64,000 nt of DNA, from sequence record PV390659.2. One strand, written 5' to 3'. The position numbers and the translations under genes were made by a program. This document shows, piece by piece, positions 41,383 through 52,637 of the stretch. Below the pieces are notes generated by a model. The model did no database searches and had not been told where the DNA came from. It saw only the letters and a program-made list of their open reading frames with translations. The stretch is from Escherichia phage vB_EcoM_P8. How positions within the stretch are numbered: position 1 is the first letter of the stretch; every line of letters begins with the position of its first letter.

Positions 41383-41670
41383 ATGAAAACATTTAAAGAA
41401 TTTACTTCTACAACTACCCCGGTTTCTACTATTACTGAAGCTACTCTTACTTCTGAAGTTATTAAAGCAAATAAAGGACGAGAAGGTAAACCAATGATTA
41501 GTTTGGTTGATGGCGAAGAAATCAAAGGTACTGTTTACCTAGGTGATGGGTGGTCTGCTAAAAAGGATGGTGCTACAATCGTTATCTCTCCTGCTGAAGA
41601 AACTGCGTTGTTTAAAGCTAAACACATTTCTGCGGCACATCTCAAGATTATTGCTAAAAATCTTTTGTAA
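41383..41670 (+). CDS. ipI: internal head protein I (IPI)
   Basis: 95 aa; N-terminal capsid-targeting sequence MKTFKEFTSTTTPVSTITEA; recognised T4 IPI. Confidence 0.9.
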   Translation: MKTFKEFTSTTTPVSTITEATLTSEVIKANKGREGKPMISLVDGEEIKGTVYLGDGWSAKKDGATIVISPAEETALFKAKHISAAHLKIIAKNLL

Positions 41671-42319: not shown

Positions 42320-42610
42320 ATGATTCTTTATGCGAAAGTATCATCCATTGAAAATGGATATAAATATGATCAAGACGCGGCTAAAGCCTTGATTGATGAT
42401 TATGGCATTTTAACATGTTTTGAAGTTGAAAAGGTTTACATTGACCGTTCATCTTCTCAAGTTAAATTAGTGAAGGAAGACCGTAAATTTAATACAGTAA
42501 ATTTTGATTTCTTTATTGAAACAGAAAAAGGTCCTCTTGAATATGATATTTTCAAGAATCCTTTGGGTCTTGAATGTATTAAATATACTTACATTAATGC
42601 AGCGTGGTGA
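42320..42610 (+). CDS. hypothetical protein
   Basis: 96 aa ORF, tightly packed. Confidence 0.55.
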   Translation: MILYAKVSSIENGYKYDQDAAKALIDDYGILTCFEVEKVYIDRSSSQVKLVKEDRKFNTVNFDFFIETEKGPLEYDIFKNPLGLECIKYTYINAAW

Positions 42611-42612
42611 AA

Positions 42613-43128
42613 ATGAATATTTGTTTGGGTACTACAATTCCGCAGGGTTACGTAATTGATGTCACTACCTGGGAAAATGATGGTGACAACTATAAAACCA
42701 AAACACTGTTTGGCGTAGAAGAGCATGAAATCTTACAATTCCAATATCTTTTAAAGAAGTTTAAAAGCCGACATTCTAGTACTAAAATTGAGCACTATTG
42801 TGGTAATGCTTCGTTCAGTGAGCAATCGCTTTTTATCTATGAATACTTGGTTGAAGGACTGTTCTCAGACCAACTTTATCCAGAATTCATTAAAAAGGTC
42901 TTTGATATAGAAGTTGACCTTGGTAATAAATCTGAAGAAGATGAAGAACGTGTATTTGACTTATTCTTTGTGAATGGTAATAAAGTGCTTGAAGGACTTA
43001 TTAATATTTTAGGTAATGCTTCTGAGTATTATGATTATGATTTTTTGCGTGTAGTTGAGAGTGTTAAATACTCTTATATAGAAGAAGAAATTGTTTTGCC
43101 GACCGTTAAAATGTTTAATTTGCTTTAA
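42613..43128 (+). CDS. hypothetical protein
   Basis: 171 aa from ATG 42613 (ORF track GTG 42604). Confidence 0.55.
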   Translation: MNICLGTTIPQGYVIDVTTWENDGDNYKTKTLFGVEEHEILQFQYLLKKFKSRHSSTKIEHYCGNASFSEQSLFIYEYLVEGLFSDQLYPEFIKKVFDIEVDLGNKSEEDEERVFDLFFVNGNKVLEGLINILGNASEYYDYDFLRVVESVKYSYIEEEIVLPTVKMFNLL

Positions 43129-44797: not shown

Positions 44798-45271
44798 ATG
44801 AAATCATATGCTCAATTTTTAAATGAAGCGGTGTTAAATGAAGCATCTAGCACCGAAATTCAAGCTGTCGCAAAAGCAGCCATTGCAGCGGGTAAATATT
44901 CCTATAAAGATGCTTCTGACGAATCACGATTCCAGTTTGCTCGCGACATGAAAGCAGAAGGATTTACGGGAAATGCAGTTAGTATGGCCTGGAAAAGTTT
45001 AGTTGCTACTGGCGCTGCTTTTGCAAAGGCTTCAGGTAAACCTGCTCCTAAAGCAGATCCTAAAGCTGCACAAGAAAAAAATATCGTTAAAGGAATTATC
45101 GCTAAATATGAAGCTATCCTTAAAGAGCTTTTAGTAATCAAAACCGAAGGCCAAAAGTTAGCCCGCGCTTATAGTTTCAAAGATAATCCACATGCTCACT
45201 CTCTTGAGTATGTTGAAGACATCCAAAAAATTATTAAAGACCGCATTTGGTCTGCTAAACAAATCAAATAA
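44798..45271 (+). CDS. internal-protein-like virion protein candidate (N-terminal capsid-targeting-like sequence)
   Basis: 157 aa; N-terminus MKSYAQFLNEAVLNEA resembles IPI targeting sequence with L-x-E-A cleavage-like sites; own TATAAATA late promoter; flanked by identical terminators. Confidence 0.6.
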   Translation: MKSYAQFLNEAVLNEASSTEIQAVAKAAIAAGKYSYKDASDESRFQFARDMKAEGFTGNAVSMAWKSLVATGAAFAKASGKPAPKADPKAAQEKNIVKGIIAKYEAILKELLVIKTEGQKLARAYSFKDNPHAHSLEYVEDIQKIIKDRIWSAKQIK

Positions 45272-49288: not shown

Positions 49289-49819
<531 letters not shown>

Positions 49820-49860
49820 AGTGGTTTACTTTCTCCTAGAATTGTGATAGTATATTCACA
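49820..49860 (+). promoter_or_regulatory. T4 early promoter upstream of denV
   Basis: GTTTAC 49824-49829, TAGTAT 49848-49853. Confidence 0.55.
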
Positions 49861-49878
49861 GTTACTTGGAGGGATAAA

Positions 49879-50295
49879 ATGACTCGTATTAATTTGACTT
49901 TAGTATCTGAACTTGCTGATCAACATTTAATCGCAGAATACCGTGAATTGCCACGCGTTTTTGGTATAGTTCGTAAACACGTGGCAAATGGTAAGCGGGT
50001 TAAAGATTTTAAAATATCTTCCGAGTTTATTTTAGGTTCTGGTCATGTTACGTTCTTTTACGACAAGTTAGAATTTTTGCGAAAGCGTCAATCAGACATT
50101 ATAATGGAATGCTTAAAACGTGGGTTTAGTATAAAAGATACTGAAGTTCCTGACATCAGCGATATTCCAGCAGAATGGAAAAATGATTATAATCCATGCA
50201 AATCAGCTATTAAATTGAGTCAACAACGACTCGATGAAAAAATTTTAATGAAGCCACACTGGTACAAGTATTACGGCAAAAATATTTACATTTAA
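49879..50295 (+). CDS. denV: endonuclease V, pyrimidine dimer DNA glycosylase
   Basis: 138 aa; recognised T4 endo V ([17 protein letters not shown]...). Confidence 0.95.
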
Positions 50296-50304
50296 AGGAA
50301 ACAT

Positions 50305-50779
50305 ATGAAAACATATCAAGAATTTATCACTGAAGCAGCTATTAATTCTCAAATTATTGCTGAATCTTTTACTGATCTTTTGAAATTTAAAAAAAGGTCA
50401 AAAAATCACTGCTGTATTGGATGATGGTACAGAAGTTGAGATGGATGTACAGGGATATAATTATGCAGTAGATGGAAAACTGTATAATAAATCCCATGCT
50501 AAATTTGATTCATTTGACGACTTTGTTAATACAGTTGAAGATGAAAAAACTCGTAGATCAATTTCAACTGGTGATGCTAAGGTTCTTATGGCACACGGTC
50601 ATGAACGTATTCGTGCTAAACAGAATAAAATGGGTGAAGATAATTTCGCATTAGTTGGTTATCAATCTGGTAAGCAAACTTATGGCTATCAGCGTACTGC
50701 TACCATGTATAATAAGAATGGTAAAATCGCTTTCGTGAATAGTAAAGGTTCTATTCAGTACGTCAAATCATTCAAATAA
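50305..50779 (+). pseudogene. internal-protein-like gene interrupted by a +1 frameshift in an A7 homopolymer (or sequencing error)
   Basis: ATG 50305 encodes MKTYQEFITEAAINSQ... and stops at 50422-50424; the reading continues in the +1 frame from the A7 run (50389-50395) to 50779; with six A the ORF is continuous, about 157 aa. Confidence 0.6.
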
Positions 50780-50920
50780 TATGGGAACAACCTGGACCTC
50801 ATGATTCTGTGAGGGATTCCCGCCAACCTGTAATAAGGTCGAGCCCAAGTGCGGTAATGGGTAAATACAGAAATGGACAATTCATGCGCCATGGAATGGC
50901 CCAAATTTAGAGAGAATAAA

Positions 50921-51460
50921 ATGAGAACATTTTTAACTGGCCCTTATCTATCCCTGATGAATGCTTTTACACACCATTCTGATGCTAGAGTAGAAGAAAT
51001 TTGTAAAAACGATTATATCCCACCATTTGAAGACTTGCTTAAACAATATTGTACACTTCGACTAGATGGTGGACGTCAATCTGGTAAATCAACTGCTGTG
51101 ACTAACTTTGCTGCTAATTGGCTGTATGACGGTGGAACAGTTATTGTTCTTTCTAATACTTCAGCTTACGCTAAAATTTCTGCGGGCCACATTAAAAAAG
51201 AATTTTCTCGTTATTCTGGCGATGATATTCGATTCCGCTTATTTACCGATTCTGTCCATAGTTTTATCGGTAATAAAGGAAGCAAGTTCAGAGGTTTATC
51301 GCTTTCGCGGATTTTGTATATAATCGATGAGCCTGTTAAATCTCCTGATATGGATAAAATTTACGATATTCATATTGAAACTGTGCACCACTGTTGCAAT
51401 AGTAAATGCTGCATTGGTGGTATTACTCGTCCACAGTTTTTCATAATCGGAATGCAATGA
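50921..51460 (+). CDS. P-loop NTPase-like protein with C-terminal Cys cluster
   Basis: Walker A GGRQSGKST, Walker B-like LYIIDEP, C-terminal HHCCNSKCCIGG; start at ATG 50921 with RBS. Confidence 0.55.
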   Translation: MRTFLTGPYLSLMNAFTHHSDARVEEICKNDYIPPFEDLLKQYCTLRLDGGRQSGKSTAVTNFAANWLYDGGTVIVLSNTSAYAKISAGHIKKEFSRYSGDDIRFRLFTDSVHSFIGNKGSKFRGLSLSRILYIIDEPVKSPDMDKIYDIHIETVHHCCNSKCCIGGITRPQFFIIGMQ

Positions 51461-51786
51461 TGACAGACACGCAACTTTTCGAATATCTTTATTTTTCGCC
51501 AAAAACTATTAAAAATAAATTGGTGAATCATTTTGAAATTTTGGCAAATAACAACGTCTTGAGCGAATTTTATCCTAAGCAATACAAATTACAAAAAGGC
51601 GTATTCAAAGGATGCAGAGTTTTGTGTACTGCTCCTAATGCAAGATTAATGAATAAAATTCCATATTTTACCATGGAATTTATTGATGGACCTTTTAAAG
51701 GACTAATCACCCAAAGTTTAATGGCATATGATTCTGAGCCATTTTTAATTAAAGAGCAATCTTGGATAAATTTATTTTCTAATTGA
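51457..51786 (+). CDS. hypothetical protein
   Basis: 109 aa from ATG overlapping upstream stop (ATGATGA). Confidence 0.5.
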
Positions 51787-51794
51787 GAGGTTAT

Positions 51795-52157
51795 ATGAAA
51801 GCATATCAAATTCTTGAAGGCACGCATAAAGGTACTATTTATTTTGAAGATGGTATTCAAGCACGAATTATTGTCTCTAAAACCTTTAAAGAGGACTCTT
51901 TTGTAGACCCGGAAATTTTCTACGGTTTGCATGCCCGTGAAATTGAAATTGAAACACAACCTACAGTTAAAATTGAAGGTGGTCAACACCTGAACGTTAA
52001 CGTTCTGCGTCGTGAAACTCTGGAAGATGCAGTTAAGCATCCGGAAAAATATCCGCAGCTGACCATCCGTGTATCCGGTTATGCAGTTCGCTTTAACTCT
52101 CTGACTCCGGAACAGCAGCGCGACGTTATCGCTCGTACCTTTACCGAGAGTCTGTAA
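51795..52157 (+). CDS. autonomous glycyl radical cofactor (GrcA/YfiD-like)
   Basis: C-terminal [29 protein letters not shown] glycyl-radical motif, matching E. coli GrcA as I recall it; GAGAGG RBS. Confidence 0.8.
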
Positions 52158-52378
52158 TGGCAAAGATAATTATTGAAGGTTCTAAAGATGTGCTAAATGC
52201 TTTCGCCGAGTGGTTTAGTAATTCAGGCGAACAGCAATTTAATGAAGCATGGAATATGGGTGATATTGATGGAATTTATCCTACGACAGAAATTTCTGTT
52301 CAGGGATATGGCATTCATGAACCTATTCGTTTAGTTGAATATGATTTAGGTACTGGTGAGGAAGTAAAATATGATTGA
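52157..52378 (+). CDS. hypothetical protein
   Basis: 73 aa ORF, ATGA-type overlap with upstream gene. Confidence 0.5.
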   Translation: MAKIIIEGSKDVLNAFAEWFSNSGEQQFNEAWNMGDIDGIYPTTEISVQGYGIHEPIRLVEYDLGTGEEVKYD

Positions 52379-52637
52379 AGATATTAAGGGTTATAAGCCA
52401 CATACTGAAGAGAAAATCGGTAAAGTGAATGCTATCAAAGATGCTGAAGTTCGTTTAGGACTTATCTTTGATGCTTTATATGATGAATTCTGGGAAGCAC
52501 TAGATAATTGTGAAGACTGTGAATTCGCGAAGAATTATGCTGAAAGTCTTGATCAGTTAACTATTGCTAAAACGAAACTCAAAGAAGCCAGTATGTGGGC
52601 TTGTCGTGCTGTGTTCCAACCAGAGGAAAAATATTAA
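52371..52637 (+). CDS. hypothetical small helical protein; position corresponds to T4 vs.4 (Acb2) by ORF counting only
   Basis: 88 aa ORF; assignment from synteny, not sequence recognition. Confidence 0.45.

Follow-up and report, generated by a model that had tools for sequence, protein, structure and literature searches.

The gene ipIV is split by a +1 frameshift in a run of seven A in the stretch of phage DNA analysed here, which is 64,000 nucleotides long and is referred to below as the window. Such frameshifts recur on different haplotypes of a gene that is under purifying selection. The best explanation, which is considered probable, is that genuine and recurrent replication slippage from six A to seven (A6 to A7) gives a null or leaky ipIV allele.

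Identity of the split gene

The window matches the Tequatrovirus Escherichia phage vB_EcoM_BMB16 (PV102577) at 100% identity, and in that record the split gene is annotated as two 'hypothetical protein' CDSs. When one A is deleted from the run the two parts fuse into a single ORF of 157 aa, as had been proposed in a preliminary description made from the letters of the window and its open reading frames. The repaired 157-aa protein matches Pfam DUF7412 (PF24183) over positions 1-157 of 158 (E 1.3e-95) and phrog_3155, 'internal virion protein', over 1-157 of 157 (E 1.1e-101). Both fragments match PF24183 in other contigs that have seven A. The UniRef 90% cluster of the intact protein includes the 'IpIV internal head protein' of phage T2. 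A single 474-nt gene, annotated as ipIV, Ip4 or 'internal virion protein', occupies the same place in relatives that are 96-97% identical (Kha5h, ime09, PYps55T, ECO4, EPIMRB01 and many more). After removal of one A the protein is 99-100% identical to IpIV/Ip4 of T2, RB14, RB32, RB51, ime09, Kha5h and AR1, and it is the same as the Kha5h protein. Judging from its sequence, the split gene is ipIV/Ip4, which encodes an internal protein (IP) of T2/RB-type Tequatroviruses, and the earlier claim that an IP-type gene is split by a +1 frameshift in A7 is borne out. The family members, taken from 14 clusters, are nearly all 156-160 aa long. The gene in the window shares with the IpIV/Ip4 family an N-terminal targeting sequence, a length of 157 aa and a position between denV and vs.8, but unlike the rest of the family it is split by A7 into ORFs of 39 aa and 112 or 120 aa. 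Because the split falls at codon 31, leaving no uninterrupted ORF of about 157 aa, ipIV in the window is a disrupted allele of the family and not, as written, a functional member.

The gene order in the window is nudE-e-denV-ipIV-vs.8...regB, with denV (endonuclease V; 49879-50295, plus strand) as the upstream neighbour and a vs.8 homologue (50921-51460, plus strand) as the downstream one. The preliminary description had correctly placed the gene between denV and the block leading to regB. It was also right that ipII and ipIII of T4 lie between denV and e; the T4 order is e-ipIII-ipII-denV-vs.8, and unlike in the window there is nothing between denV and vs.8. Its suggestion that the IP loci are rearranged has to be given up. 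A position between denV (or e) and vs.8 is that of the ipIV family, and the denV-ipIV-vs.8 layout is common to about 300 Tequatrovirus records. The layout is the usual alternative to that of T4, with a different IP gene in a different slot and no ipII or ipIII between e and denV. The e-denV-ipIV neighbourhood is mosaic, with genes present in some relatives and absent from others. EPIMRB01 (locus L006, 13053-14109) and loci L025 and L015 have no denV, and ipIV directly follows e. An extra gene for a 93-aa 'internal head protein' lies between e and denV in Kha5h, ime09 and loci L010, L012 and L017.

Organization of the split gene

The ribosome-binding site AGGAAA of ipIV (50296-50301, plus strand) comes right after the denV stop codon at 50293-50295 and is invariant in the aligned relatives. 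Frame 0 of the disrupted gene runs on the plus strand from ATG 50305 to TGA 50422-50424 (50305-50424), and its translation is the 39-aa MKTYQEFITEAAINSQIIAESFTDLLKFKKRSKNHCCIG. Residues 1-30 are native and are followed by nine out-of-frame residues, RSKNHCCIG, before the TGA. The gp21 prohead protease cleaves according to the rule (L/I)xE. The putative capsid targeting sequence (CTS) of ipIV, MKTYQEFITE (50305-50334, plus strand), has I-x-E at its end, and a further I-A-E motif is found at residues 18-20 (50356-50364). Both MKTYQEFITE and IIAE lie in frame 0, and thus the gene has a CTS together with an (L/I)xE site. In the family alignment M1, K2, F7, E10 and E20 are invariant. The role of the CTS is known from work on other internal proteins (PMC3012670; PMC12373910).

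The run of seven A occupies 50389-50395 on the plus strand and marks the +1 insertion. When intact it has six A (A6), which encode the conserved Lys-Lys of an invariant K-G-Q-K motif. The rest of ipIV, GQKITAVLDD...VKSFK (127 aa), lies in the +1 frame at 50396-50779 on the plus strand and ends at TAA 50777-50779. This frame is open from 50384 onward. The 120-codon downstream ORF of the preliminary description starts at TTG 50417, the start chosen by the program, and the BMB16 annotation starts at ATG 50441 (CDS 50441-50779, 112 aa). The ribosome-binding site, start codon, stop codon, A7 run and downstream +1 ORF that were first described can all be read in the sequence. Frame 0 and frame +1 are both open over 38 nt (50384-50421, plus strand), and any +1 shift inside this overlap would result in a full-length or near-native protein. 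There are only six A/T runs of seven or more in the 64-kb window, and the A7 of ipIV falls within the 38-nt overlap. These two facts, together with the A6 of relatives that are otherwise identical around the run, make the split more than chance.

Distribution of A6 and A7 alleles

The preliminary description had proposed a comparison with orthologues. Over 145 nt aligned around the run the relatives are identical to the window save for A6, and each has one 474-nt gene. A6 is found in Kha5h, PYps55T, ime09, EPIMRB01, ECO4 and one IMG/VR contig. A probe of 71 nt matched 304 phage records, among which the A7 match was BMB16 only. Likewise, of 310 records matched by peptide probes, only BMB16 matched the out-of-frame peptide in one piece and none (0/310) matched the other shifted frame. 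Exact-pattern scans of IMG/VR, which holds few T4-like contigs with the window haplotype, gave no A7 and one A6. The idea that A7 is private to BMB16 was overturned by look-ups of the exact products. The exact 39-aa product is present on 9 contigs from at least 8 other samples, all of them A7, two of these contigs being complete genomes from metagenomes (168.6 and 169.2 kb). The 90% cluster of the 39-aa peptide has seven distinct sequences on about 18 contigs, and the total of contigs from other samples bearing an allele of the A7 type is about 18-21. A DNA probe showed that the GenBank/RefSeq phage vB_EcoM_G4507 (MK327946 / NC_054919) also has A7, on a different haplotype, and here the gene is annotated as two 'internal virion protein' CDSs.

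The cluster of the intact protein comprises 114 sequences, of which the 15 listed already cover at least about 660 contigs. Shifted alleles make up roughly 2-3% of contigs, and two distinct isolates, BMB16 and G4507, carry them among about 300 GenBank records. In-frame A6 is the state of roughly 97-99% of ipIV copies. Additions of G occur at the same junction. In allele P0021 the peptide KKGSKNY implies A6G3, and contig L009, which has the 112-aa member P0013, carries an allele about 80% identical to that of the window that is split into 39 and 112 aa. The L009 split results from an extra G (A5G4), which gives AAAAAGGGG where the intact frame needs AAAAAGGG; comparison of indels with this divergent contig is confounded by an identity of about 70-80% outside ipIV. 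Products of A5 (-1) or A8 (+2) were absent for all five haplotypes tested.

Probable independent origins, age and selection

Fifteen ipIV alleles were compared after the run was normalised. There are 48 segregating sites, of which 46 are synonymous, and no amino-acid change is private to the A7 alleles among the 15. All shifted alleles keep an intact frame downstream. These observations indicate that ipIV is under strong purifying selection and that the shifted alleles are young.

Of the eight distinct A7 alleles, seven have their nearest counterpart among the A6 alleles and not among the other A7 alleles. At least four backgrounds can be told apart on which the upstream flank (300 nt) and the downstream haplotype are concordant, and each of these backgrounds also occurs in an A6 relative. 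The window pairs with Kha5h, L025/L015 with EPIMRB01 (both sides of this pair are without denV), L022/L016 with PYps55T, and L018 and L024 with L005. The window (A7) and Kha5h (A6) differ by 3 nt in the gene and also by 3 nt in the 300-nt upstream flank. Both tract lengths, ON and OFF, therefore exist on otherwise near-identical haplotypes, as at contingency loci. Recurrent mutation is the parsimonious reading because four concordant backgrounds, G4507 and two extra-G alleles have to be accounted for.

The 5' end of the gene is unusually uniform. Among the 15 alleles the first 90 nt of ipIV (50305-50394) have 1 segregating site versus 47 in the remaining 384 nt (50395-50779), and the synonymous positions in the first 90 nt are frozen as well. 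This suggests recombinational homogenisation of, or an RNA-level constraint on, the 5' ends of IP genes. Since codons 1-30 are nearly invariant, it was also considered whether a single A7-bearing 5' block has spread by very-short-patch recombination. This is less likely, as the flanks agree on four backgrounds and extra-G variants exist.

A second gene with a variable A-run

A second gene of 157 aa, with the CTS-like start MKSYAQFLNE..., is found at 44798-45271 on the plus strand. It is intact in the window, where 45075-45081 is an in-frame A7. EPIMRB01 shares this A7, and other phages have A6, A8 or A9. The A8 state is that of the ENA scaffold ERZ28615049 (locus L021, 3818-4292), whose genome also has A7 in ipIV, and A9 is that of the RefSeq phage ECO4 (locus L007, 18610-19085), where an annotated 339-nt CDS corresponds to the predicted 112-aa truncation. 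In exact look-ups the +1 product of 97 aa was found on at least 14 contigs, including phages G28 and T4_ev240, and the -1 product of 111 aa in phages F26 and SfPhi01. The intact version in the window is present on 44 contigs. Slipped products of two control genes with A6/T6 runs were absent; the power of this comparison is low, as the intact control haplotypes are on only 10 and 1 contigs. A third gene of the CTS type (95 aa, MKTFKEFTSTT...), intact and free of long homopolymers, lies at 41383-41670 in the window, close to gene 57B, which is the classical place of ipI.

Proposed mechanism and consequences

Slippage of the DNA polymerase on the AAA-AAA Lys-Lys codons probably adds one A and converts A6 to A7. 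Translation from ATG 50305 then ends after 39 residues, and the fragment has the CTS but not the 127-residue body (residues 31-157). The body could be made only from an internal start such as ATG 50441 and, being without the CTS, would not be packaged. ATG 50441 has a poor ribosome-binding site, with GAG immediately upstream. The virions of this phage would carry no IpIV, or a trace from a rare +1 ribosomal slip at AAA_AGG_U. The A6/G2 junction may be a mutational hotspot that yields short-lived null or hypomorphic alleles of a conserved accessory gene; whether it is a hotspot or a place where additions are merely tolerated is addressed with low power by the control look-ups at other A6/T6 runs. 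The missing A5 and A8 alleles are not predicted by simple neutral slippage, and +1 alleles may perhaps be better tolerated through leakiness. A mutational bias towards additions would also explain the +1-only pattern.

Internal proteins have an N-terminal signal that directs their packaging, after which they enter the host by injection (PMC3012670; PMC12373910). The targeting sequence of IpIV suggests that it too is packaged in the capsid and injected. A 2025 study showed that T4 Ip1, Ip2 and Ip3 are inhibitors, each one of a different GmrSD type IV restriction enzyme (PMC12373910); Ip4 is absent from that paper. IpIV has the same type of CTS as these three proteins (MKTYQEFI.E), and the T4 internal proteins are non-essential, packaged and injected. 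In contrast, there is no similarity to Ip1, Ip2 or Ip3 beyond the CTS, and the matches to other IP PHROGs are weak and N-terminal. A search of PDB sequences with IpIV gave no credible match. An AlphaFold2 model built from 12 family members is of moderate confidence (pLDDT 70.5, pTM 0.63), and a Foldseek search of the PDB with this model gave nothing significant (best E 0.037, TM <0.3). As there is no solved relative and no significant fold match, the role of IpIV is argued by analogy with Ip1, Ip2 and Ip3, and by this analogy IpIV is probably an injected inhibitor of host defence. Such an anti-defence function would be dispensable on the K-12 host on which BMB16 was isolated.

Alternative explanations

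Three options had been listed in the preliminary description, and of these a real inactivating mutation is the best supported. A sequencing or assembly error, in which the true state of BMB16 is A6 and the consensus gained an A through miscalling of the homopolymer, is very unlikely. It is true that homopolymers are the classic place for indel errors, and that BMB16 is the sole A7 phage among the GenBank phage records with the window's flanking haplotype, its state being known from the deposited consensus. However, the phage was plaque-purified five times on E. coli DH5alpha during its isolation, and its Illumina reads, from a 350-bp library, were assembled with ABySS (PMC12466917). A6/A7 miscalls in a consensus are rare with Illumina reads and de novo assembly. 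When about 50 kb was compared with two relatives, just one single-base homopolymer indel private to the window fell inside a gene, that at 50395, and the structural genes have none. A7 is also the consensus in G4507 and in independent Logan/ENA assemblies from at least 8 samples, and an error would have to account for variants that are solely +1 and never -1. Thus neither an error-prone platform, nor other homopolymer indels, nor a want of independent confirmation was found. It is unlikely, though less so, that expression depends on slippage, so that A7 still gives a useful full-length, packaged IpIV as a hypomorph ('pseudo-pseudogene') through +1 ribosomal frameshifting or slippage of RNA polymerase. 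The insertion makes a candidate +1 slip heptamer, AAA_AGG_T (50392-50398, plus strand), which has the make-up of a shift-prone site with a slow A-site codon. The P-site tRNA-Lys could re-pair on AAA one base 3'; AGG, a rare codon, would occupy the A site, and the +1-frame codon is GGU. A slip here would give exactly the wild-type protein. The natural alleles are +1 only, never -1 or +2, as expected if +1 is partly rescued, and low-level frameshifting that rescues 'savior indels' provides a precedent (PMC5009743). Every A7 allele keeps an intact downstream frame, but this is equally explained if the alleles are young. The two-frame arrangement is not conserved, as A6 keeps the gene in frame in about 300 GenBank records and on at least about 660 contigs and the shifted alleles are polyphyletic and young. 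A conserved form of the slippage-dependent expression that had been offered is therefore not supported. There is no Shine-Dalgarno-like stimulator within 20 nt upstream of AAA_AGG_T, and a phage-encoded tRNA-Arg(UCU) may relieve starvation for AGG. E. coli RNA polymerase bypasses an indel only with at least seven T, or with more A's (PMC6260861), and selection against slippery runs typically begins at 9 nt (PMC1088944). Transcriptional slippage is associated with a conserved A/T run, typically of 9 or more, at the junction, and the run here has 7 A and 6 in most homologues. Because it falls short of both the polymerase and the 9-nt thresholds, a large rescue at the RNA level is unlikely.

It is also quite unlikely that the slippage is adaptive, with the poly-A tracts of IP genes acting as contingency loci so that populations hold phages with and without the injected protein. 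Switching would be useful if the protein is needed in some hosts and harmful in others, for example when it is sensed by a defence system, and IP genes are considered arms-race genes (PMC12373910). ON and OFF states are found on the same extended haplotypes, and the second CTS-type gene behaves alike, with A6, A7, A8 or A9 and slipped forms on roughly 10% of contigs or more. In the metagenomic genome ERZ28615049 scaffold_51 both ipIV and the second CTS-type gene are shifted. On the other hand, A6/A7 is short for a true phase-variation tract, the OFF frequency of ipIV is only about 1-3%, switching inside a population is not in evidence, and IpIV is not known to be costly to the phage. For a weakly selected accessory gene a balance between mutation and selection suffices without adaptation, and the controls on other runs are underpowered. 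Recurrent +1-only ipIV alleles on at least four haplotypes, the extra-G variants and the A6-A9 range in the second gene have led to a broader suggestion, that the poly-A tracts of IP genes are reversible switches, that A7 is partly rescued at AAA_AGG_U and that populations hedge each internal protein. This suggestion is unlikely to be correct, and genuine recurrent replication slippage giving a null or leaky allele is the preferred explanation.

Neighbouring sequences

A conserved, relatively G+C-rich spacer separates ipIV from vs.8 (50782-50915, plus strand). The G+C content over 50780-50935 is about 43% versus 36% for the window. In T4 the spacer comes directly after denV and is annotated as an N-terminal extension of vs.8; the frame of this extension is closed in the window by an 8-nt indel. 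Because 1-2-nt indels occur throughout the divergent alleles, the spacer is probably non-coding. It has a hairpin at 50783-50821, GGGAA...CCTCA-loop-TGAGG...TTCCC, that is invariant, with indels solely in the loop. Folding of the spacer RNA gave z = 0.47, the fold of the alignment had no compensatory pairs, and there is no support for a structured RNA beyond this one hairpin. An Rfam match to SNORD116 in 49800-51600 was sub-threshold (27 bits vs a gathering score of 35) and is treated as chance. A scan for promoters and terminators gave counts no higher than in shuffled sequence, and no terminator was found.

Three other observations were made in the window. T4 (NC_000866, locus L008), near the position that corresponds to 52207 of the window, has a 1-nt deletion relative to all other loci, which lies within the vs.5 homologue (52157-52378). 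T4 vs.5 is annotated as 177 nt rather than the 222 nt seen elsewhere, which fits the 1-nt deletion; either a frameshift peculiar to T4 or a mistake in an old sequence could be the cause. In related contigs the homologue of vs.4 (88 aa, 52371-52637), which is in the same early block as ipIV, has the Pfam family Acb2_Tad1_hairpin, and this is an anti-CBASS/anti-Thoeris sponge fold. An ORF of 171 aa (42613-43128) just upstream of the tRNA cluster falls within about 42586-43109, the one stretch without an alignment to ECO4, and it may be an inserted accessory or homing-endonuclease-type gene.

Comparison with known systems

Streisinger et al. in 1966 and Streisinger and Owen in 1985 reportedly described frameshift hotspots at A-runs in the rII and e genes of T4. 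The ipIV allele resembles these in being a one-base addition in a six-A run, made by a T4-type polymerase in a non-essential gene. Those hotspots came from laboratory mutant hunts, however, whereas the ipIV slip is a natural polymorphism across wild phage genomes. Phase variation by hypermutable homopolymers is known, from polyG tracts reported in Campylobacter phages and from bacterial contingency loci. As in those tracts, the length of a coding homopolymer in ipIV toggles the frame of a putative host-interaction gene and both states are found in close genomes, but the ipIV run is short (6-7 A) and the OFF state is rare. With respect to rescue, the +1 site of Ty1, CUU_AGG_C, and 'hungry' codons are relevant, together with the rescue of a 'savior indel' in the thymidine kinase of a herpesvirus (PMC5009743). 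AAA_AGG_U would be like the Ty1 site in having a re-pairable P-site codon and the rare AGG in the A site. Unlike the Ty1 site it is not conserved, it arose by mutation, and no stimulatory element was found.

Implications

Taken by itself, A7 in ipIV is ordinary, since the disrupted gene is known and so is the mechanism that gave rise to the allele. A modest added interest comes from the same +1 slip being found in two IP genes of wild T4-like phages under strong purifying selection. In the annotation of both BMB16 and G4507, what is listed as two CDSs (named 'hypothetical protein' in the former and 'internal virion protein' in the latter) is one disrupted ipIV. The virions of BMB16 are probably without IpIV, and natural A6/A7 pairs such as Kha5h and BMB16 are close to ready-made isogenic pairs that could be used to find the defence countered by IpIV. 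The recurrence of slip alleles in two IP genes suggests that slippage in homopolymers causes these arms-race genes to be lost, and possibly regained, unusually often. If frequent loss of IP genes is true, it would bear on the host range of therapy phages that are propagated on laboratory strains.
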